Shown here piece after piece: positions 30,178-51,441 of a DNA stretch of 64,000 nt. A program made the position numbers and the translations under genes. The number at the start of each line of letters is the position of its first letter. Position 1 is the first letter of the stretch. The stretch is taken from positions 1,346,146 to 1,410,145 of the forward strand of contig OZ244780.1 in assembly GCA_965219565.1 (NCBI GenBank). The letters are read 5' to 3'. Under the pieces are notes generated by a model. It ran no database searches, was not told the DNA's origin, and saw only the letters and a program-made list of their open reading frames with translations. The DNA is from Dehalococcoidia bacterium (GTDB lineage: Bacteria > Chloroflexota > Dehalococcoidia > Lucifugimonadales > JAGWBF01).

Positions 30178-30232
30178 AGAGCCGGTCCCACCCCACAGGA
30201 CGCACGGAAATCAAGAGATGAGAGAGGTAGCC

Positions 30233-30550: not shown

Positions 30551-30646
30551 CGCAAGGAAACCTCATAGACCCCTACCGGGGCTTCACGCGGGAGACACCA
30601 TCCCGCGCTTGCATCACCCACATCAAGGAACGAAAGGAGACTGCCC

Positions 30647-31746: not shown

Positions 31747-31792
31747 GTGCGGCGCCAGGCGACGTAAGAGTAAGCAAGAAAGGAGACACGAC

Positions 31793-32183
31793 ATGAGACT
31801 AGCTGCACAGGCGAAGGGCGGCTACTACCCCACTCCCGAGCGGGTGGTGGACCTGATCGCCGACCTTATTCACACCCCCTCCGGCTACTACTACCGGGAG
31901 CGGGAGTCCCTGCGCATCCTCGACCCCTGCTGCGGGGCCGGGGACGCGCTGAAGAGGCTGGTGGAGGGCCTCAGCCGGCCCAACGCCCTGGCCATGGAGA
32001 CCTTCGGCATCGAGCTGCACCAGGACCGGGCGGAGGAGGCGGAGCGGCGGCTCGACCACGTGCTGGCGGCGGACCTGTTCGCCACCTCGATAGCGAACGG
32101 GGCCTTCGGCCTGCTGTACCTGAACCCGCCCTACGACTACGACTCGGAGGACAAGCGGACGGAGCACGCCTTCCTGACGCATA
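31793..32183 (+). CDS. N6-adenine DNA methyltransferase, exon 1
   Basis: Motif I ILDPCCGAGD and motif IV LNPPYDY. The frame runs into intron GTGCG at 32184 and stops 7 codons later if unspliced. Confidence 0.75.
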
Positions 32184-32693
32184 GTGCGCCGCGTAACGCG
32201 GCATAGGATACCTAGCTCAACTAGGAGGAACTCGGAGGGAGTTCCTGGGCCAACCGACCCACCTGGCGGCGAAAGCCAAAGGGGACAACAGCATGTCGGT
32301 AAAGCGGCTACAGCCCCAAAGCGTTGTAAGGCTGGTTCCGCAAGGCCCGCGCGATACGGTGAAAGCTTGATTGCCTGAACCCCAGTTCTCAGTCGGTGTA
32401 TAAGGACACCCGCCGGTAAAACGCTTGTAACCCGGCGCCACCCATTGCACTGGTCGGCAGTGTGGACCAACGCACCTCCGATGGGTGAACGATGGCTAAC
32501 TAGGTCATTCAAGGGAACGAACGGGGCACCTACAGTCGCGCTAGAACGTCCTATGTCAACGGAACGCGGGATTGCCTACGGGGGGAGACCCCTATGGCAA
32601 CGGAGCCCTCGTAGTAGTCCGAGCCGGGGAAAGCCCGGCACATGGCGAAGGAGGGCAGGTGTCAACGACGGAATACACAGAGAGGTATGCAGA

Positions 32694-34466
32694 ATGCAGA
32701 ACGCCGAAACTGTACTGAACGTCATACGCAAACGCGGAGAACGAGGATTGCCGCTGGAGAACATCTATCGGCTGCTTTACAACCGGAACCTTTACCTGCG
32801 GGCCTACGGTCGCATCTACTCAAACCAGGGAGCTACGACCAAGGGCGTCACCGCAGAAACCATGGATGGTATGTCACTGGCGAAGATCGACCGCATCATC
32901 GAAGCCTTGCGCTACGAGCGGTTCCGATGGACGCCAGTACGACGGGTCAACATTCCCAAGCCTAACGGCACGACCCGCGCCTTGGGCATACCGACTGGGC
33001 CGGACAAGCTGCTGCAAGAGGTCATCCGGATGATTCTGGAAGCCTACTACGAGCCGCAGTTTTCGGACCGCTCCCACGGCTTTCGGCCCCACCGGGGATG
33101 CCACACCGCCTTGAGCGAAGTGGTCCACACCTGGACGGGAACCCGCTGGTTTGTCGAGGGCGATATCAAAGGGTGCTTTGACAACATCGACCACGATGTC
33201 CTGTTGTCGGTGCTTGGAGAGAAGCTTCACGACAACCGATTCCTACGTCTGCTCAAGTACCTACTGAAAGCAGGCTACATCGAGGATTGGAAATACGGCC
33301 GCACGCTGAGCGGGACCCCGCAAGGCGGCATCGTCAGCCCCATCCTCGCCAACATCTACCTAGACCGGTTGGACAAGTACGTTGAGACGGTGCTGATTCC
33401 AGCACACACCCGAGGCAAAGCCCGAAGGCGCAGCCCCTCCTACCGCGCGTCGGCCAGACGCGTGGCAGCGGCTCGGCAGACTGGGAACCACGCTCAGGCG
33501 GCGCAACTGTTCACACAGATGCAACAACTTCCGTCAGGCGACCCCCACGACCCCGGATACCGTCGGTTGCGCTACGTCCGCTACGCGGACGATTTCGTCT
33601 TGGGCTTCATCGGGCCAAAGGCCGAAGCCGAGCAGATACGGGAGGCCTTGGAGACATTCCTGCACGAAACACTCAAGCTGGAGTTATCCAGGGAAAAGAC
33701 TCTCATAACCCATGCCACCAGCCAGGCGGCCAAGTTCCTCGGCTATGAACTCGTGAACCAACAGGCCAATGACAAGCATGTCCGCCACGGACAACGCAAC
33801 GCCAACGGTCGCATCGGTCTACGGGTCCCCGCCAAAGTCATCGAACAACACTGCCAAGCCTACATGCGCCACGGCAAACCGGCACACCGCAGCGTCCTTA
33901 TACACGATGAGGATTACTCCATCGTGGACAGGTATCAAGCGGAGTTCCGGGGCGTCGTCCAGTATTACCTACTGGCCCAGAATGTCTCCCATTTCGAGAG
34001 ACTGCACGGAATCATGCGGGAATCGATTGTCAAGACCCTCATCGCCAAGCACAAGACCCCACGCCGGATACTGCTCCGACGCTACAAGAGCGTCGTACAG
34101 ACCGAAGAGGGCGAACGGGCTTGCCTTGAGGCCGTCAAACAACGGGGCGATGGGAAACGCCCACTGGTGGCACGGTTCGGTGGCATACCCCTGAAGCGGA
34201 ACCGGCAGGCAATTCTAATAGACCGACAGCCTGAACCGTACAGGTTTCACCGTAACGAGCTCGTAAAACGGCTTCTAGCGGACGAATGCGAGATGTGCGA
34301 CTCAACGATGGACGTAGAAGTCCATCACATCCGCGCACTTCGCGACCTGAATGTGAAAGGCCAACGGGAAAAGCCCAAGTGGGTACAAATCATGGCGGCG
34401 CGAAAACGCAAGACCCTCGTGGTCTGTCGTACGTGTCACATGGACATCCACCACGGGCGCAAGTAA
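32694..34466 (+). CDS. Group II intron reverse transcriptase/maturase with HNH endonuclease domain
   Basis: The N-terminus LNVIRKRGERGLPLENIYRLLYNRNLYLRAY is typical of intron-encoded proteins. RT motif YVRYADDFVLGF and a C-terminal CEMCDS...EVHHIRAL...CRTCHMDIHHG. Confidence 0.9.
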   Translation: MQNAETVLNVIRKRGERGLPLENIYRLLYNRNLYLRAYGRIYSNQGATTKGVTAETMDGMSLAKIDRIIEALRYERFRWTPVRRVNIPKPNGTTRALGIPTGPDKLLQEVIRMILEAYYEPQFSDRSHGFRPHRGCHTALSEVVHTWTGTRWFVEGDIKGCFDNIDHDVLLSVLGEKLHDNRFLRLLKYLLKAGYIEDWKYGRTLSGTPQGGIVSPILANIYLDRLDKYVETVLIPAHTRGKARRRSPSYRASARRVAAARQTGNHAQAAQLFTQMQQLPSGDPHDPGYRRLRYVRYADDFVLGFIGPKAEAEQIREALETFLHETLKLELSREKTLITHATSQAAKFLGYELVNQQANDKHVRHGQRNANGRIGLRVPAKVIEQHCQAYMRHGKPAHRSVLIHDEDYSIVDRYQAEFRGVVQYYLLAQNVSHFERLHGIMRESIVKTLIAKHKTPRRILLRRYKSVVQTEEGERACLEAVKQRGDGKRPLVARFGGIPLKRNRQAILIDRQPEPYRFHRNELVKRLLADECEMCDSTMDVEVHHIRALRDLNVKGQREKPKWVQIMAARKRKTLVVCRTCHMDIHHGRK

Positions 34467-34553
34467 TCCACGCAAGCACAGTAGGTAGTGTCCAATCCAC
34501 AACAACTGAATACGACTCCAATAACAGCCTCCTCCCCCGCGTGGTACACTTGA

Positions 34554-35006
34554 ATGACAGCCATTGCCGGGGTTTTGGGCCTATGCCCACTGGAGGTAAT
34601 GGGGCAAATGCTACACCGGGTGAAGGTGTATCCCGCCAAACGCCGCTTCCTAGCAACGCTCGGCCTAACCTTGGTTTCGGGCGTAGGCTTCGTACTGGCC
34701 GTCACTGTACTTGAGAGACCAGACGACACTTGGCGTGCCATGGTTACAGGAGTGATCGCGCTAATGGTCGCCCCCTTCCTCGCTGGCTGGCTATCACCCC
34801 ATCCCAGTTACGTAGCGTTCTTCCCCATCAGTCTGTTTGTCGGACTCTCAGTTGAGACGGCCATACACGGCCCTCTGACGATTGATTCTGACAACTTCTG
34901 GTTCATCGTCGCGCTCACCACAATCTATGGTGGCTTGGCGTCAGTAACGTTCTTGGGCGGGTGGCTGACTCATTACGGCCTCTCCCGTCTGGCAGAGCGC
35001 AGGTAA
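34554..35006 (+). CDS. Four-helix membrane protein encoded inside the intron (domain IV, downstream of the IEP)
   Basis: 150-aa ORF with four clear hydrophobic helices. Two short hairpins follow it before domain V. Confidence 0.45.
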   Translation: MTAIAGVLGLCPLEVMGQMLHRVKVYPAKRRFLATLGLTLVSGVGFVLAVTVLERPDDTWRAMVTGVIALMVAPFLAGWLSPHPSYVAFFPISLFVGLSVETAIHGPLTIDSDNFWFIVALTTIYGGLASVTFLGGWLTHYGLSRLAERR

Positions 35007-35097
35007 AGCGGGCCTACCACCCGTAGGCTCACACTGCCAATCACGTGGTGCCCAAGCACCACGCCTAGCTAACGACACTACCCACATCGACACTGGA

Positions 35098-35131
35098 GAG
35101 CCGGATGCGGTGAAAGCCGCACGTCCGGTTC
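35098..35131 (+). ncRNA. Group II intron domain V
   Basis: GAGCCGGATGCGGTGAAAGCCGCACGTCCGGTTC. The 34-nt helix has a GAAA tetraloop and the catalytic AGC triad position. Confidence 0.8.
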
Positions 35132-35194
35132 GGAGGGGGGCCGACGGAAAAGTGCTCCGGTAACACGGGGTAACTCGCCGGCGGCCTACCCTAC

Positions 35195-35841
35195 CCACGC
35201 GCTACCTGGCCGAGGACGGCCTGCTGGTCTTCATCGTGCCACGGCAGCGCCTCGCGGTCTCGGCCCGGTATCTCTCCACCCACTACGGGCGGATGCAGTG
35301 CTGGGCCTTTCCCGACCCGGAGGGGCAGGTTTTCGACCAGGTGGCGCTGTTCGGCTTCCGGAAGACCGATCCCGTTCCCGACGCCACAGCCGAGAGCAGG
35401 GTGCTGGAGTGGGCGGTGGGTGAGCCGGAGCCCCTGCGCTCCCACGCCTACACGGAGTTCACCCCATCGACGACGCCGGTCGGCGACATCCTCTTCACGA
35501 CCCGGACCGTCGATCCGGTCGCTGCGGCCGCCGAGGCGCGGCGGTCGGGGCTGTGGGCCAGCACGGAGATCACCGACACCCTGTGGCCCGCGAGCGACAA
35601 CCGGACCCGCCCGCTGATGCCCCTCAGACGGGGCCACATGGCGATGCTGGTGGCGGCGGGCTTCCTCAACAACCTGGTGCTCGAAGCCGAGGGCAGGCGC
35701 ATCCTGGTCAAGGGCCGCACCTCGAAGGAGATGGTGATGGTCGAGGACGCCCCGGAGAAGGAGGTCCACCGCGAGAAGCTCAACACGACCGTCGTCGCCC
35801 TGGACCTCGACGACGGGCAGATCGAGGACATCGCAGCGTAG
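35195..35841 (+). CDS. N6-adenine DNA methyltransferase, exon 2
   Basis: Continues ...AFLTH-T-TRYLAEDGLLVFIVPRQRL..., the expected post-NPPY region. The frame is consistent with the exon 1 phase (1 + 2 nt). Confidence 0.7.
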
Positions 35842-36167: not shown

Positions 36168-36348
36168 ACGGCTGGATTCCAAGCCGCACTCACGAGGCCC
36201 GCCAACTGTGGCGGTCTTCGCAGATCCAACCAACCGCCTGGGGACGCTTCCAGGAACCCGCGCTCACAAGCGTCCCCACCGGGGGCGTGGTGCGTCCCGG
36301 GTCCCGGCGTCGTCCTCCGGCCCACCACGGAAAAGGAGGACGACTGAA

Positions 36349-38691
36349 ATGAACCTCGGAGGTTTCATAGACACGTTCAAGGACGCGATAGCCAAGAGGG
36401 TGGTCGAGTCCTACCCGCCGCTCTACCGCCCCTCGGAGAACGGCGGCACGCTCCCCAGGCTGCTCCGCAAGCCCCTGGGGGCGCAGGCCGACGCGATCAG
36501 GGGCGCGGCCCTCTCCCTGAAGGCCCACCGGGGCACCACCGTCGTCGGCGAGATGGGCACCGGCAAGACCTTCATCGGCGCGGCAGCGGCATACATGGCG
36601 GGCTTCGAGAGGATTCTCATCATCTGCCCGCCCCACCTGGTGCCCAAGTGGAAGCGGGAGGTGGAGATGACGGTGGCCGGCGTCCGCGCCGCCATCGTCG
36701 AGTCCATCACCGACCTGGAGCGGCTGCGCCTCTCCGTCGGCTCAGGCCCTCTGTTCGCGGTGATGAGCCGGGAGAAGGCCAAGCTGTCCTACCGCTGGAT
36801 GCCCGCCGTGATACAGCGGTGGGCCGTCTCGAAGGGAAGGCTCCTGCGGGAGGAGGAGACGGGGGAGCCCTTCCGAGTCCCCTGCTGCCCCGACTGCACG
36901 GCGCAGATCGTCGACAAGGACGGCGTGCCCCTGACGTTCGCGGACCTGAACCGCCGCAAACACACCTGCGCCGGCTGCTACGCCCCCCTGTGGCAAGCCG
37001 ACAGGTCCGGCCCGGCCCGCTACCCGCTGGCCGACTACATCAAGCACCGGATGAAGGGCTTCTTCGACCTGCTGATCGGCGACGAAGTCCACGAGTTCAA
37101 GGGGCGAAGCTCTGCCCAGGGCATCGCCGCCGGCATCCTCGCAGACGTGTGCGGCAAGTCCCTCAGCCTGACCGGGACGCTCCTCGGCGGATACTCCTCG
37201 ACCATCTTCCACCTGCTCTACAGGTTCTCGCCGGAGATACGGACGGAGTTCGGGCGCTCCGACGAGGGGCGCTGGATCAAGCGGTACGGCTTCGAGGAGG
37301 TCACCGTCGGCAAACCCGACGACGACGCGGTGGAGGACGGGCGCAACAGCCGCCGCCGCAGCTACCGCAAGGTCACCAGGGAAAGGCCGGGCCTGGTGCC
37401 CTCGGCGTTGTTCCACATCATAGGGAACACCGTCTTCCTCAGACTGGCGGACGTCGCCTCCGGCCTGCCGGACTACGAGGAGAAGATCCTCGTGTCCTCG
37501 ATGGACTCGGAGGAGGACGCGACGGGCTACTCCCAGCGCAGCGCCTACAAGCACGTGTTCGAGACGCTGAAGGAGGAGCTGGCGAAGGCGCTGAAATCCG
37601 GCTCGAAGCGGCTGCTGGCGACGTACCTGCAAACCCTCCTCGCCTACCCCGACGGCTGCACCCGGGGCGAGACGGTCTTCGACCCCCGGACCGGCGACGT
37701 CATCGTGCAGGTGCCGCCCCTGTCCGAGGAGAAGCTCTACCCGAAGGAGAAGGCGCTCATCGACCTGGTGGCCGCCGAGCGGCTGGAGGGACGACGGGTG
37801 CTGGTCTACGTCACCCACACTGGGACCAGGGACATCACCGGGCGGATGGACGACTTCCTCACCCGGCACGGGTTCCGGGTGGCGGTGATGAAGGCCGACG
37901 CGGTGGCCCCGAACCGCAGGGAGAAGTGGGTCGCCGACAAGGTGAAGGAGGGCATCGACGTGCTCATCTGCCACCCCAGGCTGGTGCAGACCGGCCTCGA
38001 CCTCATCGACTTCCCGACAATCGTCTGGGACGAAACTGATTACTCGGTGTACGTCGTCCGGCAGGCGTCGCGCCGGTCGTGGCGCATCGGGCAGACCCGC
38101 CCGGTGAAGGTGGTGTTCATGTCCTACCGCAACACCCTCCAGGCCGACGCCCTGAAGCTGGTGGCGAAGAAGATGCAGAGTTCCCTGGCCGTCGAGGGGG
38201 AGCTGCCGGAGGACGGGCTGGCCGCCTATGGCGACGACGGCGACGACATGATGATGGCCCTGGCCCGCAGGATCGTCAGCGGCGAGGAGGAGGACGAGGC
38301 CGAGACGATGCAGGAGGTGTTCGCCCAGGCACGGAACGCCGAGAGCGAGGCCGAGGAGCTGCTGGTGGACGACGGCTGGAAGGTCGTCGAAGTCGAGCCG
38401 GAGGCCATTGCGGTCAACGGCAACGGGAACGGCAACGGCCACCACGGGTCCGACATCTTCGGGCCGACGGTCGAGCTCGTCCCGGTCAACGGCCACGCCA
38501 ACGGCAACGGAGCCAACGGCCACCACGACGAGGAACCGGAGGCGCAGCAGTCGCTGTTCTCCTGGGCCGAGTTCATGGCCGAGGAGCCGGTCAAGCCCAA
38601 GAGCCGCAAGGCCCGGACTCCCTCCCTGTCCCTCTTCGAGTGGGCGGTGGAACAGGAGCGCGAATCGGAGCCGGTCGGCGCAGGACGCTAG
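36349..38691 (+). CDS. SNF2/DEAD-like superfamily 2 helicase
   Basis: ATG after an AAAAGGAGG RBS. Motifs GEMGTGKT, DEVHEFK and QASRRSWRIGQ. Has an inserted CCPDC...CAGC zinc ribbon and an Asn-Gly/His-rich tail. Confidence 0.8.
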   Translation: MNLGGFIDTFKDAIAKRVVESYPPLYRPSENGGTLPRLLRKPLGAQADAIRGAALSLKAHRGTTVVGEMGTGKTFIGAAAAYMAGFERILIICPPHLVPKWKREVEMTVAGVRAAIVESITDLERLRLSVGSGPLFAVMSREKAKLSYRWMPAVIQRWAVSKGRLLREEETGEPFRVPCCPDCTAQIVDKDGVPLTFADLNRRKHTCAGCYAPLWQADRSGPARYPLADYIKHRMKGFFDLLIGDEVHEFKGRSSAQGIAAGILADVCGKSLSLTGTLLGGYSSTIFHLLYRFSPEIRTEFGRSDEGRWIKRYGFEEVTVGKPDDDAVEDGRNSRRRSYRKVTRERPGLVPSALFHIIGNTVFLRLADVASGLPDYEEKILVSSMDSEEDATGYSQRSAYKHVFETLKEELAKALKSGSKRLLATYLQTLLAYPDGCTRGETVFDPRTGDVIVQVPPLSEEKLYPKEKALIDLVAAERLEGRRVLVYVTHTGTRDITGRMDDFLTRHGFRVAVMKADAVAPNRREKWVADKVKEGIDVLICHPRLVQTGLDLIDFPTIVWDETDYSVYVVRQASRRSWRIGQTRPVKVVFMSYRNTLQADALKLVAKKMQSSLAVEGELPEDGLAAYGDDGDDMMMALARRIVSGEEEDEAETMQEVFAQARNAESEAEELLVDDGWKVVEVEPEAIAVNGNGNGNGHHGSDIFGPTVELVPVNGHANGNGANGHHDEEPEAQQSLFSWAEFMAEEPVKPKSRKARTPSLSLFEWAVEQERESEPVGAGR

Positions 38692-38704
38692 ACCGCCACA
38701 CACG

Positions 38705-38739
38705 GGGGTAGGACGCCCATGACACGGGTGTCCTACCCC
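38705..38739 (+). terminator. Intergenic 10-bp-stem hairpin
   Basis: GGGGTAGGAC...GTCCTACCCC between the helicase and Ubl genes. Confidence 0.4.
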
Positions 38740-38831
38740 TGCCAGTCCGAGAGGCCCGAACGGTGTCCCGAACGGGACGCCGCAGACACGGCAACGCAGC
38801 AAGACAGCAACTCTCACAAAGGAGATCAGTC

Positions 38832-39038
38832 ATGGCAAGAGTGTTCGTATACGACGACCGCGAGTTCCCGGACCCCGACCCCGAGATGAGCGTCGACCAG
38901 GTGAAGAGCACGCTCAGCGACTTCTACGGCGAGATCGCCAACGCCTCGGTCAAGGAGACCAAGCGGGGCGACGACACCATCTACGAGTTCCAGCGGCGGG
39001 TGGGCACCAAGGGCGCCTTCACCCTCGCCCGGAGCTAG
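38832..39038 (+). CDS. Ubiquitin-like (beta-grasp-sized) protein, PRTRC protein C-like
   Basis: 68 aa with an AAAGGAG RBS. RVFVYDDREFPDPDPEMSVDQVKSTLSDFYGEI...YEFQRRVGTKG matches my memory of the PRTRC-C family, which ends in GTKG. Here 7 extra residues (AFTLARS) follow. Confidence 0.6.
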   Translation: MARVFVYDDREFPDPDPEMSVDQVKSTLSDFYGEIANASVKETKRGDDTIYEFQRRVGTKGAFTLARS

Positions 39039-39051
39039 AGGAGGGAGTCCG

Positions 39052-39279
39052 ATGGACAACCGGACCTTTGCGGGCCTGCTGGCGGCGACGCCTCCGGCGG
39101 GCCTCAGAATCATCGAGCTCACGGCGGAGCTCACACGGCCCGACGGCTCCTTCGACCTGGACGCCGCGGCCGCACGGCAGGCTGAGGTGGAGACGGCCTG
39201 CACCCAGGCCCAGGACTACGCCTCGGCCACGGGCCGACTGCTGGAGGCGATGCGATGGAAGCTGCTGCCCCGGCGCTGA
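39052..39279 (+). CDS. Hypothetical small protein within the Ubl cassette
   Basis: 75 aa. Its stop overlaps the next ATG (TGATG). Confidence 0.45.
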   Translation: MDNRTFAGLLAATPPAGLRIIELTAELTRPDGSFDLDAAAARQAEVETACTQAQDYASATGRLLEAMRWKLLPRR

Positions 39280-40094
39280 TGAGCGGCCTGGCCGAACGGC
39301 TCCTGCGGCGTCCGCCGTCGCTGCGGGAGCTGGTCACGCTGGTCGGGTACGCCGACGACTACGCATGGTTCGCGGGGCTGGTGCGCCGCCTCTTCCCGAA
39401 TGAGGCGGAGGCGGCGCTCTCGGCCCCCGACGTGCGCACGAGGGTGGAGCGGTTCGCACACCTCTTTGGCGAACGACACTTCCCCCTCTACGCGCCGATG
39501 ATCGAGTTCTGGACGGAGGTCGAGGACGAACCGCCCTGGTCCTGGCTCAGGAGGGGCATCCCCTTCGACCTGATGGGCTTCGGCTACGACGGCCTCCACG
39601 AGATGTGGAACGGCTACCGGGACGGCATCTCGGCAATGGCCCTCCTGGTCAGGCCACCGGACGTCTACTACGACGGCCCCGACGGGCTGCGGGTGGCCTG
39701 GCTGGAGTCGGCCGCCGAGCGCATACCGAAAGAGACCTTGGAGAGAGTTCCCGAAGGGGGCATACCCCTGGAGGACCTCACGGAGGCGCTGAAAGGAACG
39801 AGGTTCGAGGGGGCGGCGCAAGCCTGCTCCTGGGTCCTCGCCGAGACCGGCAACTTCTTCCTCGACCACAACTACGAGGACGGGAGCTACGACGGCTTCG
39901 CCGACCCCTGGGACGACGACATCATCGCCGAGGGCACGGAGGAGTGGCGAAAGGCCAGCGCCCTCATGGACTCGGTGTGCAAACTGGCCGACTGGCTGGA
40001 GGACGACCTCCCCGGCCGCTTCGCGGAGATGCTGGACTTCGTCCTGCCCCGGCTCCCCGAACAAGAACAGGAGGCAACCGACCATGACGACTGA
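39279..40094 (+). CDS. Hypothetical protein within the Ubl cassette (positional equivalent of PRTRC protein F)
   Basis: 271 aa counted from the ATG coupled to the previous stop. Acidic, Trp-rich, with no motif recognised. Confidence 0.5.
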   Translation: MSGLAERLLRRPPSLRELVTLVGYADDYAWFAGLVRRLFPNEAEAALSAPDVRTRVERFAHLFGERHFPLYAPMIEFWTEVEDEPPWSWLRRGIPFDLMGFGYDGLHEMWNGYRDGISAMALLVRPPDVYYDGPDGLRVAWLESAAERIPKETLERVPEGGIPLEDLTEALKGTRFEGAAQACSWVLAETGNFFLDHNYEDGSYDGFADPWDDDIIAEGTEEWRKASALMDSVCKLADWLEDDLPGRFAEMLDFVLPRLPEQEQEATDHDD

Positions 40095-40794
40095 CACAGA
40101 AAAGACCGAGTGGTCCCTTCCGGGCCCGGATGAAATACCCAGGGACAAGCTGAACCTCCAGATGGAAGTCTACGAGGAGACCATCCTGCTGCGGGGCTTC
40201 GAGGGCGAGTCCGTCTGGGTCAAGACCGTATCGGCGGACGAGATCGCCAACGTCTTCACCCAGCACCTGGGTTTCTCCTCGGGGCTGCTTCCCCAGGACG
40301 CCCTCTGGTGGAACCAGGGCGAGACCGGCCAGATGGTGGCCCTCTGGCGGCCGCCGCAGGTCTGGCCGGTGGCCCTGCAACGGGAGGCGTTCAAGTCACC
40401 CGCACGGCTCCGGCTTCCCATGCCGGGGCTGGTCTTCGTCTGCTCGCCGGGCCGTGCGCCCTGGGCCTACGCGGCCCTGGAGCGACCGACGGACCCCGAT
40501 GAGCAGCTCTACCGAATGCCCGCCTTCAACGTCTTCGGCGACGGGCGGGTCTGCCCCGGAAGCCACCGGTTCCCCGAGGAGGTGGCACAGATACCGGAGT
40601 CCTTCTTCCGGTCCTTCTTCTCCCTTACCGGAGATTCAAAGAACCGCTCGAAGAAGCACCCCGACGACCTGCACTCGCTATGGGAGGAGTTGGATGGAAA
40701 GACTGAGTACCCGGTTGAGGACCTTGTTCCCCAGTGCACGGTGGCCCAGGTCATTGCGGCCTCCCAGGGGAGACGGGGCTATGGCTACCGCTAG
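40084..40794 (+). CDS. E2/UBC-like protein, PRTRC protein B-like
   Basis: MPAFNVFGDGRVCPG resembles the HPN...C active-site region of E2 enzymes. Size and position fit PRTRC-B. Confidence 0.55.
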   Translation: MTTDTEKTEWSLPGPDEIPRDKLNLQMEVYEETILLRGFEGESVWVKTVSADEIANVFTQHLGFSSGLLPQDALWWNQGETGQMVALWRPPQVWPVALQREAFKSPARLRLPMPGLVFVCSPGRAPWAYAALERPTDPDEQLYRMPAFNVFGDGRVCPGSHRFPEEVAQIPESFFRSFFSLTGDSKNRSKKHPDDLHSLWEELDGKTEYPVEDLVPQCTVAQVIAASQGRRGYGYR

Positions 40795-41470
40795 AGACGT
40801 ACGAGGCCCGGTGGGCTACCTCGTCAATCACCCAGGCGGGCTGACCGGCGCGCACGGCGTCGGCTACGACTACGTTTTCGGATTGGGCGGCGTCTACGTC
40901 CAGTCCGAGAGCGCACACCTGACGGCGCGGGTGCTCGTCTCCCCCTGCACGGTGCGGGGCCTCGCGCCCGTAACCGAGAAGGCGGAGCTAACGAACGGCC
41001 CCATCCCGGCCCGGCTCTTCGAAATCGGGCTACGCTGGTTCAAAGACGAACCCGACACCGAGCGGTTCTTCGCCGTCAGGTGGGACGGGCGAGCCTACCG
41101 GCTGGTGGTTCCCGAACAGGAAGGGACGGCTTCGTCCCTCAAATACATCCCGCCCGCAGGGGTGGTCGCCGAGTTCCACTCCCACGGAAGCTCCCGCGCC
41201 TTCTTCTCGAAGACCGACGACGGCGACGAGCTGGGCTTCCGCGTCTACGGCGTCGTTGGACGCCTGGACAGCCCCGAACCGGAGCTGAGTCTTCGGGTCG
41301 GCGTCTACGGCCACTTCGCAACGGTGGACTGGTCCCAGATGTTCGACGGGCCTATACCGGGCGTCCGGCTGGTGGACGAAGAGCCGGATTCAACCAATAC
41401 AAGAGACAAGGAGGTGATTGAATGCCTTACCACCTGGACAACGCGTTCCTGCTCGACAATCCCTGGATAA
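40781..41470 (+). CDS. JAB/MPN metallopeptidase, PRTRC protein A-like
   Basis: Intact JAMM motif AEFHSHGSSRAFFSKTDDGDE. The start overlaps the previous gene and the tail overlaps the E1 start by 49 nt. Confidence 0.7.
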   Translation: MATARDVRGPVGYLVNHPGGLTGAHGVGYDYVFGLGGVYVQSESAHLTARVLVSPCTVRGLAPVTEKAELTNGPIPARLFEIGLRWFKDEPDTERFFAVRWDGRAYRLVVPEQEGTASSLKYIPPAGVVAEFHSHGSSRAFFSKTDDGDELGFRVYGVVGRLDSPEPELSLRVGVYGHFATVDWSQMFDGPIPGVRLVDEEPDSTNTRDKEVIECLTTWTTRSCSTIPG

Positions 41471-42237
41471 CGGTGGTCGGCTGCGGTGGGACCGGAGGCT
41501 TCGTCGCCGAGGGTCTGTGCAGACTCTTCCAGGGGCGGCAGGCCACCATCGTCCTGGTCGACCACGACCGGGTGGAGCCCCACAACCTGCTGCGCCAGAA
41601 TTTCTACCCGGAGGATGTCGGGAGATTCAAGAGCCAGGCCCTCGCCGACCGGCTGGCCAAAGCCTACCGGCGTCCCGTGGGCTACTCGGTCTACCCGTTC
41701 CGGGAATACGACGCGCAACCCCACGGGCACGGCTACCCCGGCATCCCCGGCTACGGCGGCAACCTCATCATCGGCTGCGCCGACAACGCCGCAGCACGCA
41801 GGGCGATGGCGGAGTGCCTGCCGGTCGACACGCGCCGGTGGCTCATCGACGCGGGCAACGACACCAACTGGGGACAGGTGCTGGTAGGCAACGTCGCCGA
41901 GCCGGTGACCCTGGAGGAACCGCCCTTCACCGGGGAGACCTGCCACCTGGCGCCCGCGCCCACGCTCCAGCGCCCCGACCTGCTGACGGCGGTGTCGACC
42001 AGGCCGCCGGACGTGGACTGCGCGACGGCCCTCGACCTCACCGACCAGGACCCGACCATCAACCAGATGATGGCGTCCCTGGCGCTACAGGTGGTCCGCC
42101 GCATGGTGGCGGGCACCTGCCCCTTCATGGGCCTCTACCTGGACATGGAGCAGGGAACGGTCACCCCCAGCTACGTCACCCCGGAGGCGGTGGTGCGGGT
42201 GGTCGGGCCCGGCTCCGAGTGGGAGATAGAGGCTTAG
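41422..42237 (+). CDS. ThiF/MoeB/E1-like adenylyltransferase
   Basis: AGGAGG RBS. ITVVGCGGTGGFVAEGL Rossmann loop, VDHDRVEPHNLLRQ and IIGCADNAAARRA. Confidence 0.8.
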   Translation: MPYHLDNAFLLDNPWITVVGCGGTGGFVAEGLCRLFQGRQATIVLVDHDRVEPHNLLRQNFYPEDVGRFKSQALADRLAKAYRRPVGYSVYPFREYDAQPHGHGYPGIPGYGGNLIIGCADNAAARRAMAECLPVDTRRWLIDAGNDTNWGQVLVGNVAEPVTLEEPPFTGETCHLAPAPTLQRPDLLTAVSTRPPDVDCATALDLTDQDPTINQMMASLALQVVRRMVAGTCPFMGLYLDMEQGTVTPSYVTPEAVVRVVGPGSEWEIEA

Positions 42238-42288
42238 AGGTCAACGCACGAGCACACGCTCAGAGAAGAGACAACGAGAGGAGAAACC

Positions 42289-42699
42289 ATGTCTTACGAA
42301 AACGGAAACGCCACGACCCCGCATCAGGTGCGGGGCAGGTTCTGGGAGGACAAGCACAGCGGGCGCCGCAGGCACAAGCTGATGACGAAGGAGCTCGCCA
42401 ATACCATCCCGCCCCTGTACGCCAATGACGGAGCGGACGACCCCGACGCCGTTCTCGCCAGGGTGAAGCTGTTCACCCCATACGCCAACTGGACCTGGTA
42501 CGTGACCGAGTGGGAGGCGGAGACCGGGCTCTGCTTCGGCCTCGTCGAGGGGTTCGAGACCGAGCTGGGCTACTTCTCACTCGACGAGTTGGCGGACGTG
42601 ACCGTGCTCGGCGGCGTCCCCGCCGTGGAGCGGGACCTGTACTGGGAGCCGCAGACCCTCGGCGAGATCAGGAGACAGTCGGCGGGGATGGCGGCCTAG
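42289..42699 (+). CDS. DUF2958-family protein
   Basis: LMTKELANTIPPLY...VKLFTPYANWTWYVTEWE...CFGLVEGFETELGYFSLDEL...VERDLYWEP matches the DUF2958 pattern as I remember it. Confidence 0.65.
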   Translation: MSYENGNATTPHQVRGRFWEDKHSGRRRHKLMTKELANTIPPLYANDGADDPDAVLARVKLFTPYANWTWYVTEWEAETGLCFGLVEGFETELGYFSLDELADVTVLGGVPAVERDLYWEPQTLGEIRRQSAGMAA

Positions 42700-42751
42700 C
42701 GAACGCCGCACAGAAGCGCAATCACAGAATCGACGAAGCAAGGAGAAGACC

Positions 42752-43249
42752 ATGCCTGACGATAACGGAACGGAAGCAACCCACTCGGATGCGCCGAGCG
42801 CAGACGACGGCCTGTTCGGCGATGCGGCGGAGCCCGCGGCGGCCCCGACTGCCGAAGAGCAGGACGCCAATAAGGAGACCGCACAGGACGGCCAGGGCTC
42901 CGATGACGCCGGGGAGCAGGCCGCTGGAGAGGAGATCGAAGCCTCCGAGGACCTCAAGGTCGTCGTGTCCATCAAGGGAGGCAGGGCAACCATCGGGGTG
43001 CAGCAGCCTTCGTCGGACCCGCACATTGAGACGTTCGATGACCTGGACGAGTCCGGGCTTTCGCAGGAAGTCTCGGCGGTGGTCGAGAGGGCGAGGGCCA
43101 GGTGGGAGGACGCACCCAAGCACCCGGCCCACATCAGGCCCGATCCCCCGGCCAGGCGCCGGAACCGGCGCGGGCAGGGGTCGGCGCAGGCTTCAGACGC
43201 CGAGGCAGGGGCAGAGCAGGAGCAACAGCAGACGCTTAGGCTGTTCTAG
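42752..43249 (+). CDS. Acidic low-complexity protein, possibly PRTRC protein E-like
   Basis: A disordered acidic N-terminus is followed by LKVVVSIKGGRATIGVQQP and a basic/acidic tail ending TLRLF. The family assignment is weak. Confidence 0.4.
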   Translation: MPDDNGTEATHSDAPSADDGLFGDAAEPAAAPTAEEQDANKETAQDGQGSDDAGEQAAGEEIEASEDLKVVVSIKGGRATIGVQQPSSDPHIETFDDLDESGLSQEVSAVVERARARWEDAPKHPAHIRPDPPARRRNRRGQGSAQASDAEAGAEQEQQQTLRLF

Positions 43250-43341: not shown

Positions 43342-43443
43342 ATGCAGCCTTTTTTGCGTTTCGGGCCGTTCTCGCGTCCGTATGCGGCCCTTTTTGCGTT
43401 TCAGAGGAGACTAACTGACATGGGTGCACCACGAGAGTTAGTC
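43342..43443 (+). repeat. Direct repeat copy A with nested palindrome
   Basis: ATGCRGCC(T)nGCGTTTC occurs twice, followed by GACTAACT-gacat-GGTGCACC-acgag-AGTTAGTC. The core recurs exactly 8000 bp downstream. Confidence 0.75.
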
Positions 43444-44152: not shown

Positions 44153-47100
44153 TCAGAGTTCTAGCTTCGACATCGGCGACCAATCCGAAGTTCCGGCCTC
44201 GTTGACGGCCCGGACGCGGAAGTAGTACACCGTCCAGTACGTCGGCAGTCCCGTGACTGTGGCTCCGGACCCGCTAATGGAGACGCCCAGGCCTGCGCCG
44301 TCGTTCGGCAGCGTCGTCCACTCGCCATTCCACCACAGCCCTACCTCGTAGCCAGTGGCGGTCTCAACGTCGTTCCAGTCCAGGGAGGCATTGCCTGCGC
44401 CGTCCAGGCTCCCGGTGGGCGCGTCGGGCGAGTCCGGGGCGACTGCCGGTGGCAGAGCGGCTCTGGTCACGGTGACGGTATAGGTCGTGGCGGTGTTGCC
44501 GTCCTCGGCGGTGACCTCGACGGTGATGACGTTTCTGCCCACATCGAGTGGGATTACCCCGTCGGCGTCGGCCACGCCGTCCAGCTTGACCGCGTAGGCC
44601 GCTCCGTCGTCGCTGACCGTGGGCGTTACCGTGGTTTCCGTCACGTCGTTGTCGACGTTGGCGGCATACTCGGTGGTGGCCGGGTCGAAGGCGCCGATGT
44701 CCACGCCGCTCAGCGTCAGCCTGCTCAGGGCGGCGTCAGTGGAGAGCGGCGGCGCGGCGCGAGTGACGGAGACGGTGTAGGTCTTGGTGCCGTTCCCGTC
44801 CTCGGCGGTGACCTCGACGGTGATGACGTTGCCGCCCACGCCGAGGGGGATTACCCCGTCCTCGTCAGCCACGCCGTCGAGCTTGATTACGTAGCTTGCC
44901 CCGCCGTCGTTGGTCGTCGGGGTCACCGTCGTTTCGTCCATATCGCTGGCGACGTTGGCGGTGTACCTGGTCGTGTCTGATGCGAACGCCAGGGTGACAT
45001 CGCTCAGGGTCAGGCCGCTCAGCGTCGCGTCTGTGGAGGCTGGCTCCGGCTGTTGTTGGTCTGGGGCGTTGACCGTGAAGCCGGCGGTGGCCGACGCCAG
45101 CTTCACGTTGCCGGGGGACGATATGCTGACCTCGACGGTGTAGTCGCCGGGCGCGCAGGACGTGGAGATGGTGCCTGTGCGGACCTCCGGGTCCTCGTCC
45201 ACCTTGTACATGTAGCGGTCGTTGCCCATGCCGCCGCCTACGCAGCCGTCGGCGTTCCTCACGTCGGCCCGGAAGATGTAGTCGGTGTCGGAGGTGTCCG
45301 AGTCGGATTCCAGGTTGGCGAAAGACATGGTGACGGTGACCTCGACGCCTTCGTCCACCGGCCCGGACGGAGAGAGAGCAATCGCCACGGCAGGGCCCGA
45401 GACCGTCAGCGCGGCGCGGGTGACAGTCACCTTATAGGTCTTGACCGCGCTGCCGTCCTCGGCGGTCACTTCTACTGTGATGACGTTGGTGCCCACCGCG
45501 AGAGGGATTACCCCGTCCGCGTCAGCCACGCCGTCGAGCTTGATCGCGTAGGTGGCCCCGCCGTCGTTAGTCGTCGGACTAACCGTCGTCTGCCTCACAT
45601 CGCTGGCGACGCTGGCGGTGTACCCGGTAGTGGCCTGGTCGAACGCGCCGAAGTCGATGCCGCTCAGCGCCAGGTTGCGCAGCGTGGCGTCGGCGGAGAG
45701 CGACGGCGCGGCGCGGGTTACGGTTACGGTGTAGGTCCGCGTGGTGTTCCCGTCCTCGGCGGTGACTTTGACGGCGATGGCGTTGCTCCCCACGGCGAGA
45801 GAGACGGTCCCGTCTTCGTCTGCCGCGCCGTCGAGCTTGATTACGTAGCTTGCCCCGCCGTCGTTGGTCGTCGGGGTAACGGTGGTCTGCGTCACGTCGT
45901 TGGCGACGCTGGCGGTGTACCCGGTAGTGGCTGATGCGAACGTGCCGATGTTGACGCCGCTCAGGGTGAGGCCGTTCAGCGTGGCGTCTGAGGAGGCCGG
46001 CTCCGGCGGTTGTTGGTCTGGGGCGTTGACCGTGAAGCCGGCGGTGGCCGACGCCAGCTCCACGTTGTCGGGAGACGAGATGCTCGCCCGGACGGTGTAG
46101 GCGCCCGCCGGGCAGTCTGCGGAGATGGTCCCCGTGCGGACTTCGGGGTCCTCATCCACCTGGTACATGTAGCGGTCTACGCCCAGGCCGTAGCCCCCCG
46201 CACGGTCCTCGCATTGGTCGGCCCCAACCACGTCGGCGCGGAAGATGTAATCGGTGTCGGAAGTGTTGGAATCAGACTCCAGGTTGGAGAAAGTCATGGT
46301 CACGTCGATTGGCGCGCCAACGGGCGCGGTGGGGGGCGACAGCGCAATCACAGCCGCAGGGCCGGACTCGGCCCGCTCCTCCTCTTCCCCACGCTGCCCC
46401 GGCGCCAAGTTTGCGCTCAGCGGATTGGCCTGGCCAATCTCGAAACCGTCGATCCTTTCCCTTCCGTTCTCATCCCGGCCACCGTCCACGAAAGCCGCCG
46501 AATCCACCGACACGGTGAACACTCGGCTGAACGTGCCGGACCGGGACAAGGTCACCCCCTCGCTGGCCAGGCTGCCCGCCGCTATCGTTACCGTGTGCTG
46601 CGACAGCACCCCGCCGTTGGATACCGACAGGGTGATGGTCATGTCCGCCGGCGCGCCTTGGGCCACCCTGACCGCGATTTCGTAGGTGCTCCGGTCCTGC
46701 TTCAGCACCGGCGTCAGCGTGAAAGGCGTACCCGTGTTGCCTATGAACCATACCGTGTTCAGACTGGAAAGGCCCTCGAACAATCCGTCCGGCAGATCCC
46801 TCAGTTTGTTGTCGAACAGAGCCAGCACCCGCAGAGCGCCCAGGCCCTCGAACACATCGCCCGGCAGTGCGTTCAGTTTATTCCCGTAGAGATACAGCGA
46901 TTCCAGACTGGACAATCCCGCGAAAGCCCCGGCTGGCAGCGTGCGCAGGTTGTTGTTTTCCAAGCTCAAGTCTTTCAGCTTGACCAGGCCCGCGAAAGCC
47001 CCGGCTGGCAGCGTGCGCAGGTTGTTGTTTTCCAGACTCAAGTCTTCCAACTTGCCCAATCCGTTGAAGGCGTCCTCCGGCAGCGTCGCCAGAGCGTTGT

Positions 47101-50100
47101 CGTGCAGGCGCAGCTCTTCGAGTTTGCCTAGGCGCTCAAATCCCGGCAGCGTCGTCAGCGCGTTGTCGTGCAGCAGCAGGGCTTCCAGTTCGACCAGGTC
47201 GCCGAGCACCCCGTCCGGCAGCGCGCTCAGGGCTTTGCTCTCATCGGCGTTCTTGTTGTGGTGTAGGTCCAGGCTCTTCAGCTTGGACAGGCCGTCAAAC
47301 ACGCCCTCGGGCAGCGACAGCAGGTGGTTGTTATCCAGAATCAGCCGCTCCAGGCCGGCCGCGTCGGCAAAAGTATCCGCCGGCAGCGCCGTAAACTCGT
47401 TCTCCCCCAAGTGCAGCAGTTTCAGGGCCGGCAGGCGGGTGAACATATCCGTCGGCAGCGCGGTCAGCGAGTTGTGTTCCAGGTGCAGCTTGTTCAGGCT
47501 CGCTAAGCCGTTGAACACGTCGGCGGGCAGCGCGGTCAGGGAGTTGCGTTCCAGGTGCAGCTCTTGGAGGTTCGCCAGGCCCTGGAAATCCCCGGATTTC
47601 AGCCCGGTAATCCCTTTGTTGATCAGCAGCAGGCTGCCGGTGATACCAGCAAGGTCCTCAGCCGTAACCAACTCGCAGTCGCTGACGTTGGGCAGCAGGG
47701 CCAGAATCCCGTCGCGCACCTGCGGCGTGCGCCCGCAGATGCCCGCCAAGTCGGTTACGGTAACGGTGACGTCCAAGGCGCCGGTATTGGTTCCATCGAA
47801 CGCCTGCACCGTTACGCTGTACACGTTGTCAGCATCGGCGTCCGCCGGGGCCTCGTAGTCGGGGGCAGCGGCGAACACCAGTTCCCCGGCGCTGCCGATG
47901 GAGAAGTCGCCGCCGTCGTCGCCGGACACCGACCAGGTTATGGTTGCGTTGTCTTCCCCGCCCGTTGCCGCGTATGCAGCCACCGGCGCAGCGCCGTTCT
48001 CGGCGTAGTCCGCCGCGACGGGACCGGACATGGCAAGCGGTGTTCCGGAGGTCAGCGTCAGGCTGTCCCCGACGCCAATCCGTATGCCATCGTAGCCCTC
48101 GTAATCATCCTCGTCGAACTCAGCTGACTCCACGCTGACGACGACCTGAGCGTGCCCGTTGCCGGCGGGGGTGAGGGTAATCGCATCGCTGGCCGTCTTG
48201 CCGCCCTCAACCTTGATAGCCGCGCCGGACAGGTCGCCGCCCTCGACCGACAGGCCGACGTCCATGTCGAAGGGCGACCCCTCGGCGACCTTGACCGCCA
48301 CCGCGCCGTCTCCCTGCTGTTCCAACTCCGCGGTAAGCGTGAAAGGCGCTCCGGGATTACCGCTCAGGGTCAGTCGCTCCAGGTTGGAGAGGCCCTCGAA
48401 AAGACCTTCGGGAAGCTCACTCAGATTGTTCTCGTCCAAGCGCAGCAATTGCAGGTTGGAGAGGCCGTCGAACACGCCGGCGGGCTGATCGCTCAGATTG
48501 TTGTCATACAAGTACAGCCGTTGCAGGCTGGTGAGGCCGTCGAATACGCCGTTCGGCAGTGATGCCAGCTGGTTGGAGCCCAAGCCCAGCCGTCGCAGGC
48601 TGGTGAGGCCGTCGAACACGTCCTCGGGCAGGGAAGTCAGATCGTTGTTCCACATGTGCAGCCCTTGCAGGCTGGTGAGGCCGTCGAACACGTCCTCGGG
48701 CAGGGAAGTCAGGTCGTTGTTGTCCAGGTGCAGATCTTTCAGGCTGGTGAGGCCGCTGAAGTCTCCGTCCTGCAATGCGGTTATCCCGGCATCAGACAGC
48801 AATAGGTCGCCTGTAATGCCGGCCAGGTCCGAGCTGGTCACCGCCGCGCAGTCGCTGACGTTGGGCAGCAGGGCCAGAATCCCGTCGCGCACCTGCGGCG
48901 TGCGGTCGCAGATGCCGGAGTTACCGGAGACGGACACGACCACGGTGGTTTCGGCCGTCCCGTCAATGCCGTCGTCGGCCGTGACGGTCAGCTCGTACTC
49001 ACCCGGGGCGACCGACGCACCAATGCCGCGCGTGTAACTGATCACTCCGCTGGTCGAGTCAATCCCGAACCGCGAAGGCCAGTCCCCCGCCTTCGCGTAC
49101 GTGATCGAATCGTTATCCGCGTCGGCCGCGACGACCGTGATGAGATTCGGCACTTCACTCGAATCGCTCTCCATCTCGACCGCGTAAAGCGCCGCGAACT
49201 GCGGCGGCGTGCCGGGAAGATCATAGGCGACGTTGAAGAGTCCCTGCCTGACCCAGATTATGCTGCCGTCGGACCACATGCCGCTTGTAATCATTGTGAG
49301 GAGGTCGTATGGGGATGGAGGGGGAGGAGCTCGTACAATGTCGAAATCGCGGCTCGGCACCCGCGCTTTGGTCTGGAGGTCGAAGGCGTACACTATGCGG
49401 CGTTTCGCTCCTTCGACCCACATCGTCTTTCCGTTGGACCAAAGTCCGGCTGGTGAGCCGACCGAGTACGGTAGGAATGGGGGTTTTCCCCTCGTCCCGG
49501 GAACCGAGAACTCCTCGCTCCGATCTCTCATTCCCGTGGCCATGTTGTACGCGTATACGCGCAAATGATGCCCGGTTACCCACATCGTTTCGCCGTCGGA
49601 CCAGATGCCCCCAGAGGGGTGATCGCGACCGGCTGAGATGTGGTCGTAGTGCGTGAGCCTAATCGTCTTGTCGCTTAGAAGCTTCCAGCTCGATCCGGTC
49701 CGTTGGAAGGCATATAAATAGTGCCTGTTTCCATGACCGCTATCATGTTTTTCGACTGTCAGCCATAGGATTCCATTGCCGTACCAGAGTTCCGGGTTCG
49801 CAAAAGACCCGTATTCGCATATCTTGAAAGTCGAGGGCACTCCATTGCAGGGGCCGATGTTGAAGCCCGCTCCCCTGTCCACCTCGCCCGTCTCCCGGTC
49901 GTAGATCGATACGACCACCCTGGCCAACCTGGCGAGCTCCTCCTCCACCCTTATTGACGCAATCCAGAACCTGTCGGCGCTTCCGTTCGCCGACGTGAAA
50001 CCAGTGGCAAGCGCTTCATTCGTATAGGGCGTTATGAAAGTATGCTCGCGGGTCACCGGGTCTTGCGCCCACGTCTCCGGCGCTGGCGCTGCCGGACGTT

Positions 50101-51353: not shown

Positions 51354-51441
51354 ATGCGGGCTTTTGCGTTCCAGCAGGTCTATGCCCGTATCCGGGCCGT
51401 GCAGAGAGGACTAACTGACGTGGGTGCGCCACGAGAGTTAG
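51354..51441 (+). repeat. Direct repeat copy B
   Basis: ATGCGGGCTTTTGCGTTCCAG ... GGACTAACTGACGTGGGTGCGCCACGAGAGTTAG. About 34 of 38 core positions are identical to copy A. Confidence 0.75.

Follow-up and report, generated by a model that had tools for sequence, protein, structure and literature searches.

A predicted ubiquitin-like conjugation operon related to PRTRC on an integrative and conjugative element of a marine Dehalococcoidia bacterium

What does a complete set of ubiquitin-like conjugation genes do on a conjugative element? The question is raised by six adjacent genes in a 64,000-nt stretch of DNA (the window) from a Dehalococcoidia bacterium (assembly GCA_965219565.1, contig OZ244780.1). 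They encode a small ubiquitin-like protein (Ubl), a 75-aa protein (orf75), a 279-aa protein (orf279), an E2-like protein, a JAB/JAMM metallopeptidase and a ThiF-type E1 adenylating enzyme (Table 1), and they are carried by an integrative and conjugative element (ICE) inserted beside tRNA-Asn in a marine, SAR202-like Dehalococcoidia genome. The cassette is a real, intact and well-conserved operon. In our judgement it is probably a Ubl protein-conjugation operon of the PRTRC-like or "6d" type, and it may serve the mobile element that carries it. Prediction of the 6d/PRTRC type dates from 2006; experimental work on bacterial Ubl conjugation is a young field, in which CBASS Cap2/3, Bil and Bub have been dissected.

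The operon and its predicted conjugation pathway

An initial annotation of the window had described six translationally coupled genes, and both the list of open reading frames (ORFs) and our reading of the junctions agreed with it; all six are co-directional. The Ubl and orf75 genes are separated by a 13-nt gap containing AGGAGG, and orf75 and orf279 meet in a TGATG at 39277-39281. The remaining junctions are overlaps: 11 nt between orf279 and the E2-like gene (40084-40094), 14 nt between the E2-like and JAB genes (40781-40794), and 49 nt between JAB and E1 (41422-41470). A Shine-Dalgarno-like sequence was found at all six starts, for example AAGGAGGTGAT ahead of the E1 ATG. The ATG at 39255 appears the likelier start of orf279 over that at 39279, because GGAGG lies 7 nt before it and homologues are 279-282 aa long. 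GC content at third codon positions (GC3) was 0.80-0.96 in the named frames of the six genes. The ratio of non-synonymous to synonymous substitution rates (dN/dS), calculated against 18 related loci, was 0.23-0.36 for all six (0.36 for orf75; 0.28-0.32 for the E2-like and JAB genes, as whole-gene values) and 0.37 for orf165, the final gene of the operon. Based on GC3 and dN/dS, all six, including the two that encode proteins of no recognised family, are real genes under purifying selection.

Profile searches placed the cassette beside a known family. The curated cut-offs were 45.95 bits for PRTRC_C, 131.45 for PRTRC_B, 101.8 for PRTRC_A and 144.75 for PRTRC_ThiF; those of Pfam were 25 bits for each of Prok_Ub, Prok-E2_D and Prok-JAB and 28.1 for ThiF. 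The Ubl matched PRTRC_C (TIGR03738) at 49.3 bits, above the cut-off, and Prok_Ub at 56.7 bits. The E2-like protein matched Prok-E2_D at 63.4 bits and PRTRC_B (TIGR03737) at 70.5 bits, the latter under its cut-off; JAB matched PRTRC_A (TIGR03735) at 49.8 bits and Prok-JAB at 22.7 bits, both under cut-off; and E1 matched ThiF at 55.1 bits and PRTRC_ThiF (TIGR03736) at 102.4 bits, the PRTRC score again falling short. Though they reached only about 50-70% of the cut-offs, PRTRC_B, PRTRC_A and PRTRC_ThiF were each the top match of their enzyme. These TIGRFAM and Pfam searches, proposed as a check with the initial annotation, recovered the PRTRC models, Prok_Ub, Prok-E2_D and ThiF; together with the motifs described below, they bear out the gene content that had been listed (a Ubl, two unknowns, an E2-like protein with a Cys, an intact JAMM site and a ThiF E1).

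The remaining members of a PRTRC cassette were sought with negative results. Neither orf75 nor orf279 had a match in Pfam, NCBIfam, PADLOC or PHROGs. The large ORFs of the window gave no Pfam or NCBIfam match to ParB, the ORFs neighbouring the cassette gave none to ParB, E or F, and the PRTRC proteins ParB, E and F of the canonical cassette of Cupriavidus metallidurans pMOL28 had no tblastn match with E<1 anywhere in the 64 kb, as expected from the annotated lack of a ParB gene. Identification of orf279 with PRTRC_F was rejected (hhalign of the alpha-protein family against PRTRC_F, probability 0.1%), as was that of orf75 with PRTRC_E (no detectable homology). Because only PRTRC_C passes its cut-off and ParB, E and F were not found, the sequence comparisons place the cassette as a divergent sister group of PRTRC, of the 6d operon type, rather than as a strict PRTRC member. 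The match to PRTRC originally proposed thus holds as kinship, the top profiles being those of PRTRC, and fails as strict membership.

The likely sequence of events in the predicted pathway can be followed from protein to protein; the steps are inferred because the conserved residues coincide with the established chemistry of ThiF/E1, UBC and JAMM proteins. The Ubl ends in EFQRRVGTKG at Gly61, followed by a 7-aa tail, AFTLARS. EFQRRVGTKG was invariant in 78 related loci, and the tail after Gly61 varied in sequence and in length (4-11 aa). Five distant cassettes kept [KR]R[VA]GTKG with tails of 5-92 aa, and the canonical pMOL28 PRTRC_C ends in GAKG followed by AYAQI. Because GTKG is invariant while the sequence downstream varies freely, this C-terminus appears to be the signature of a precursor trimmed to expose a glycine. 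The small cassette protein, the counterpart of orf75, is fused in frame behind the GTKG of the Ubl in L088, a 528-kb circular metagenome contig (8797-9207), and the Ubls of L084 (8467-8928) and L086 (115-534) carry unrelated C-terminal extensions of 78-92 aa after GTKG. No relative of the Ubl was found in the PDB by sequence search.

The JAMM peptidase would cut the Ubl after Gly61, removing the variable tail; the same cut would free the fused small protein in some relatives. The annotated HSH...S..D motif of this peptidase is intact: HSHGSSRAFFSKTD in the 229-aa protein is a complete JAMM site, HxH-x7-S-x2-D, made up of H133, H135, S143 and D146, with E94 as the upstream Glu. All five residues were invariant in seven cassettes, the canonical pMOL28 PRTRC_A among them. 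R59 and W86 of the JAB-N domain are present in the window and were kept in most, not all, of the seven. No solved relative of JAB was found in the PDB by sequence or profile search.

Next, E1 would adenylate Gly61 with ATP, using its glycine-rich loop, R58, K70 and D121, and would load the Ubl on Cys200. The loop (GCGGTGG, residues 20-26), R58, Q59, K70, D121 and the single Cys, C200, were invariant in eight cassettes including pMOL28. The protein is a stand-alone ThiF domain with no rhodanese, and its PDB relatives by sequence are MccB, UBA5, Uba4 and ThiF. Since these are the nearest solved E1 relatives, a different chemistry must be weighed, in which the Ubl would be a ThiS/MoaD-like sulfur carrier whose thiocarboxylate is used in nucleic-acid or cofactor modification, with JAB doing no more than mature the carrier, on the model of CysO/Mec+. 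There are precedents for sulfur carriers matured by JAMM proteins, and the cassette is linked to DNA-modification genes (the methylase in the window, DndB in L081). We nevertheless consider this reading highly improbable, given that the E2-like protein, whose Cys is near-invariant, is never missing, that no rhodanese, cysteine desulfurase or sulfur-inserting enzyme was seen in the cassettes examined, and that the Ubl ends in GTKG, not GG.

In the predicted conjugation pathway the Ubl would instead pass to Cys157 of the E2-like protein, in a P-x2-N-x4-G-x2-C loop. Residues 148-159 of the 236-aa protein, FNVFGDGRVCPG, include this Cys, and the full active-site motif reads P146-x2-N149-x4-G154-x2-C157-x-G159. 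Asn and Cys are spaced by 8, as they are in the HPN...C loop of classical E2s such as UbcH5. In an alignment of 55 full-length, diverse relatives, down to 28% identity, P146 and G154 were invariant and N149, C157 and G159 were each kept in 54; the exception for C157 and G159 was one apparently frameshifted sequence. The candidate Cys near residue 150 was therefore correctly expected to be kept among homologues. H161 occurred in 27 of the 55, all within the subclade of the window, and the other subclade has a His or Asp about 25 residues downstream. The AlphaFold2 (AF2) model of the E2-like protein (pLDDT 91.6, pTM 0.80) contains a helix at 51-61, a beta-meander at 73-113 with three further strands, the loop at 146-160 and three helices, an order that, as modelled, is compatible with a UBC core plus extra strands. 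A search of BFVD matched the model to four uncharacterised phage proteins (best TM 0.59). Because structure searches gave no UBC match, the E2 label draws on the active-site motif and the Pfam family.

Finally, the Ubl would be joined to one or more target lysines, and the same JAMM peptidase could reverse the mark. No E3 is recognisable in the cassette. The 279-aa and 75-aa proteins are likeliest to be specificity factors, regulators or substrates. Homologues of orf75 were identified by sequence (phmmer/hmmsearch) and position in L081, L084, L086 and L087. orf279 shares 29% identity with its counterpart in L081 (E 6e-29), and alignments of its family (A3, A5) contain conserved YFPL, TGNxFLD and W..W motifs. 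Its AF2 model (pLDDT 87.9) is all-alpha, with 16 helices, and had no fold match in a Foldseek search of the PDB, where ferritins and nuclear receptors appeared at TM about 0.1. In its position the protein corresponds both to the "novel alpha-helical protein" known from the 6d operon and to protein F of PRTRC, and the modelled fold agrees with the 2006 description of the former.

Distribution and role of the cassette

Relatives of the E2-like protein formed 882 clusters at 50% identity in a library-wide HMMER search (E<=1e-3). It had 1187 database matches, the best 120 of which were all at least 77% identical. Among GTDB species genomes, 118 stretches encode an E2-like relative, and the best 80 of these lie almost entirely in metagenome-assembled genomes of Dehalococcoidia, SAR202 or other Chloroflexota, often in two or three copies per genome. 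These relatives point to a Dehalococcoidia host; an actinobacterial host, suggested by the high GC content, was rejected on their account. The gene order from the single-stranded DNA-binding protein (SSB) to orf165 was kept in these 80 loci. The gene for the DUF2958 protein, which follows E1, is syntenic in nearly all cassette-bearing loci and located elsewhere in cassette-less relatives. The Ubl was the most conserved protein in related loci (83-100%) and JAB the least (mostly 67-94%).

Identity along the cassette is mosaic. The segments 38350-39950 and 42100-43000, which hold the Ubl, orf75, orf279, the E1 C-terminus, DUF2958 and orf165, were 99-100% identical to one related locus (L036); the segment between them, 40000-41450, with the E2-like and JAB genes, was 95-99% identical to another (L012) and 73-95% identical to L036. 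This pattern implies that recombination has swapped the E2-JAB pair as a unit among elements that circulate together. Such elements are strongly modular and occur in many copies; four or more copies of the helicase were found on single Dehalococcoidia contigs.

At greater distance, the core order of Ubl, a 73-85-aa protein, a 245-299-aa protein, E2-like, JAB and E1 was maintained across deep divergence. The six-gene core was found in the metagenome contigs L081/L082, L086, L087 and L088, with E2 proteins only 35-47% identical, on a prophage (L084/L085; integrase, ParA, primase, terminase) and on the plasmids L089 and L091. In L088 the JAB gene was missed by the gene caller and is present at 10275-11258. 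L087 is a 302-kb contig with ribonucleotide reductase (RNR) and SSB near the cassette; L089 is a Pseudanabaena plasmid with SSB upstream of it, and L091 a Chlorohelix plasmid with a helicase and a C5-methyltransferase downstream. In the plasmid collection searched, 188 plasmids carry an E1 of this type; 84 of them are conjugative, 30 are mobilizable and 74 are non-mobilizable. Genes that recur near the cassette encode SSB (L087, L089), primase (L084), helicase (window, L081, L091) and RNR (L087); DNA methylases lie near it in the window, pMOL28 and L091, and DndB in L081.

A role in element entry, establishment or replication, such as the modification of host or element proteins acting on incoming DNA, is possible, and we tentatively favour it. 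It is favoured because the operon that contains the cassette also encodes SSB, recombination proteins, an orphan N6-methylase and an SNF2 helicase, because neighbours concerned with single-stranded DNA, replication and methylation recur on unrelated elements, because no cassette-specific defence model was matched and the AbiE cargo of the window lies outside the conserved block, and because orphan methylases and SSBs are hallmark families of leading regions (PMC11541004). If a pro-element role is true, it reverses the picture of bacterial ubiquitination as purely defensive. More speculatively, the cassette may be an offensive tool that is expressed together with the establishment genes for SSB, methylase and helicase and tags proteins of the host, or of rival elements, in the entered cell, for example to disable defence or repair, with the 75-aa and 279-aa proteins acting in an E3-like way. 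Should that be true, it would be the first bacterial ubiquitination system to work for the invader instead of for host immunity.

Several observations count against our reading of a conjugation operon that serves the element. Conjugation activity is predicted from conserved residues, and the beta-grasp nature of the 68-aa protein is predicted from one line of evidence, its Prok_Ub family membership. Only the active-site motif of the 236-aa protein aligns to classical E2s: hhalign against six of them matched it to HPN..G.IC with P 3.8e-4, over 20 columns only and at a probability of 36%. Sequence and profile searches of the PDB turned up no solved relative of the E2-like protein and no E2, and Foldseek with its model found no PDB chain at E<=1e-3 (best TM about 0.15) and no UBC/E2. 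The likeness to a leading region would be a parallel only. Defence is the function of all bacterial Ubl systems studied by experiment (CBASS Cap2/3, Bil). A survey anchored on the helicase found 518 relatives in species genomes, and the 80 closest loci (L093-L172) were inspected: 39 held a complete, ordered cassette, about 6 a damaged one and about 35 none. Two of the cassette-less loci were examined (L153, L106), and in both the high-GC3 element block stops right after the helicase. In the damaged cassette of L101, JAB and E1 are separated by a gene for a reverse transcriptase. The element family does not need the cassette, which forms a terminal, accessory module in one of its branches; the idea that it forms a universal element backbone was rejected by this survey. 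As an accessory end module, it therefore fits defence cargo as well as anti-defence.

The cassette might accordingly be defence or exclusion cargo, tagging proteins of phages or competing elements and so protecting the host cell and, with it, the ICE. All Ubl systems of established role, CBASS and Bil among them, are antiviral (PMC11601596), and the variable presence of the cassette as a terminal module, complete in 39/80 loci and decayed in some, agrees with such a function, as does its occurrence on a prophage. The swapping of the E2-JAB pair and the low conservation of JAB would suit an arms race, yet the whole-gene dN/dS of both genes gave no sign of positive selection. Further points speak against defence: PADLOC has no model matching the Ubl, orf75, orf279, the E2-like protein or JAB, E1 giving only a CBASS E1-E2 match of ~70 residues; the cassette is transcribed as a continuation of the replication/methylase/helicase operon, outside any defence island; its neighbours, where it is carried by plasmids or very large contigs, are SSB, RNR, primase or the replication gene; and the recognisable AbiE genes of the window lie elsewhere. 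We regard defence as rather unlikely.

An addiction or maintenance function is very unlikely. In this case the opposed activities of E1 and E2 on one side and JAB on the other would make loss of the element harmful, or would regulate partition or copy control. The idea was raised in the discussion of Iyer et al. 2006 (PMC1779556); canonical PRTRC is tied to a ParB-family gene, and these genomes maintain the elements stably and in several copies. However, ParB was not found in the window, no toxin-like component was recognised, and damaged or absent cassettes in close relatives argue against strong addiction.

The host element and other features of the window

Identification of the host element as an ICE follows from its tRNA-Asn, serine recombinase, Replic_Relax relaxase, VirB4, TrbL and replication/recombination block (Table 1). 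The cassette lies within a high-GC island (0.66-0.71, as compared with about 0.58 in the flanks) that starts next to the tRNA-Asn. It continues the transcription unit of replication, recombination, methylase and helicase genes and adjoins the 3' side of the helicase; gene order thus places it on an ICE directly behind methylase and helicase genes, as annotated. The blastn homology of related elements ends at 43362-43404. The description of the cassette as embedded in an early-gene block was right as to orientation and contiguity, but the cassette is the last module before the element end (~43.4 kb), found in 39 of the 80 inspected loci.

Table 1. Cassette genes and other annotated features of the window (window coordinates)
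Feature	Coordinates	Strand	Remarks
tRNA-Asn	7019-7093		island start
Large serine recombinase	7128-8828	-	
Replic_Relax relaxase	10381-12012	-	
VirB4-like ATPase	14593-16872	-	
TrbL/VirB6	19412-20392	-	
Primase	23997-25283	+	
Rad52/22-family annealing protein	25388-26386	+	
DUF7007 protein	26461-26979	+	
TSCPD-like domain protein	26931-27383		similar to B12-dependent RNR C-terminus
RecE/Cas4-like exonuclease	27384-28559	+	PHROG matches only
SSB	28624-29064	+	
RadC	29668-30177	+	
DUF6094 N6-adenine methylase	31793-35841	+	split by group II intron
SNF2/ResIII-type helicase	36208-38691	+	ResIII, Helicase_C; phrog_62 DNA helicase 116 bits
Ubl precursor, 68 aa	38832-39038	+	ATG within longer 38763 ORF
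orf75 small protein, 75 aa	39052-39279	+	conserved cassette member
orf279 all-alpha protein, 279 aa (271 aa if ATG at 39279)	39255-40094	+	AF2 model
E2-like protein, 236 aa	40084-40794	+	Prok-E2_D, candidate Cys157
JAB/JAMM metallopeptidase, 229 aa	40781-41470	+	within 40454 ORF; JAB-N domain N-terminal
ThiF-type E1 adenylating enzyme, 271 aa	41422-42237	+	ThiF/PRTRC_ThiF profiles
DUF2958 protein, 136 aa	42289-42699	+	same operon, next after E1; Pfam DUF2958 43.8 bits
Acidic 165-aa protein (orf165)	42752-43249	+	final operon gene; no family match
Terminator-like hairpin and T-run	43372-43387	+	end of operon and of conserved element DNA

The 140-nt spacer between the helicase and Ubl genes contains a perfect hairpin with a 10-bp stem (GGGGTAGGAC...GTCCTACCCC, ~38705-38740) and no T-run; this spacer was the least conserved stretch in comparison with L012 (59%). 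The methylase gene is interrupted by a group II intron (~32182-35195) that encodes a reverse transcriptase/maturase/HNH protein (32445-34466) and matches Rfam Intron_gpII at 35096-35194. Exon 1 (31793-~32181) and exon 2 (~35196-35841) together form an in-frame 344-aa protein with NPPY. Methylase alleles without the intron were found in L007, L012, L039 and L040, and L036 has an intron at the same site.

Just upstream of the methylase, a 492-aa ORF (30268-31746) was judged from its wrong codon-position GC to be a spurious frame, probably an artefact of high GC. The likely genes instead lie at 30218-30550 (110 aa) and at 30647-31291 (214 aa); neither had a family match, and a third frame is apparently coding at ~31250-31790. 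A 47-nt repeat (81% identical) with a GC-rich hairpin, GGGGCCG...CGGCCCC, lies after SSB (29101-29147) and before RadC (29596-29642). Three 25-nt direct repeats (GGTTGGAGTGATAAGCCCTTCTTCC-like), 41 nt apart, were located in an intergenic region at 22553-22659, downstream of an ORF at 21367-22272 and between the type IV secretion system block (minus strand) and the main replication/recombination block (plus strand). Iterons, an operator or a candidate origin of transfer (oriT) would each be possible identities.

Beyond the operon, a 40-nt direct repeat (90% identical) occurs at 43402-43441 and 51402-51441, exactly 8000 nt apart. The bracketed segment encodes a 2161-aa leucine-rich-repeat and cadherin-like protein (44153-50638, minus strand) and a 232-aa ORF, and may be a nested insertion or mark an att-like site. 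An AbiEi antitoxin/AbiEii nucleotidyltransferase toxin pair (type IV toxin-antitoxin/abortive infection) lies at 52129-54491, outside the conserved block of the element; a DUF2971 protein comes after it, where the GC content is low (0.50).

Comparison with known systems

Canonical PRTRC cassettes (TIGR03734-TIGR03742; C. metallidurans pMOL28) share with the window the order of Ubl (C), a protein of ~280-380 aa, E2-like (B), JAB (A) and ThiF; the full order on pMOL28 is ParB-E-C-F-B-A-ThiF, with an N6-methylase upstream. They likewise have a Ubl that ends in G-x-K-G plus a short tail, a conjugative carrier and an N6-methylase nearby. The window differs in having no ParB, no protein E and no recognisable protein F, in the extra 75-aa gene between the Ubl and the alpha protein, in the E2 loop (CPGSH, as compared with CxGxxxFPxC and its 4-residue insert in canonical PRTRC) and in its host phylum, Chloroflexota.

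As described by Iyer, Burroughs and Aravind (2006), the 6d operon encodes a small Ubl whose C-terminal Gly is conserved, an alpha-helical protein that diverges rapidly, an E2-like protein that has the Cys and lacks the His of HPN, a JAB that includes a JAB-N domain, and a stand-alone E1 that lacks rhodanese (PMC1779556). All five described components were found in the window, and the mobile, sporadic distribution is shared. The conserved Gly is that of GTKG in 78 close and 5 distant cassettes, the E2-like protein has P-A-F-N in place of H-P-N, and the JAMM site with JAB-N domain, the E1 lacking rhodanese and the alpha-helical protein are all present. The 2006 description differs in an "absolutely conserved" His downstream of the Cys (PMC1779556), whereas H161 is kept in only 27/55 of the window family; it has no sixth small protein, and Dehalococcoidia are outside its species list.

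Systems studied by experiment share some features with the window. Bil (BilABCD) also has separate genes for Ubl, E2, JAB and E1 and no E3, its E2 being the presumed target selector; the Bil E1 is a tandem-domain protein, whereas that of the window is a single ThiF domain of 271 aa. Type II CBASS Cap2/Cap3 (6b) and 6A-MBL have a similar E1 nucleotide-binding region (PADLOC E1-E2, NF058523, ~70 residues) and a JAB partner, but their E1 and E2 are fused and their substrate is a CD-NTase rather than a dedicated Ubl. Bub (6E/DUF6527) works through Ser/Tyr oxyester intermediates, and its protease is a serine protease of the DUF6527 type, as opposed to the conserved Cys and JAMM site of the window. 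No CD-NTase, MBL or DUF6527 genes are present in the window, and PHROGs had no match for the five cassette proteins other than E1. Eukaryotic ubiquitin precursors likewise have a conserved Gly C-terminus followed by a dispensable tail or, as in L088, a fused partner. The likeness is by analogy only: the eukaryotic C-terminus is RGG rather than GTKG, and processing by the cassette JAMM protein is presumed.

Within the searchable literature, no functional study of the PRTRC type was found, only mentions in genome annotations, and the statement that the type is functionally uncharacterised stands to that extent. In one preprint the acronym is mistaken for the name of a pilus system, and the Bub paper notes that other bacterial Ubl operon families remain uncharacterised. 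The architecture itself is already known, having been described in 2006 and captured by Pfam and TIGRFAM; the window represents a ParB-less branch of it in an unusual host. The window and its relatives add the sixth conserved gene, the predicted processing site, the candidate catalytic residues, the E2-JAB exchange and the recurring neighbourhood of single-stranded DNA, replication and methylation genes, with a six-gene core shared by different phyla and kinds of element.

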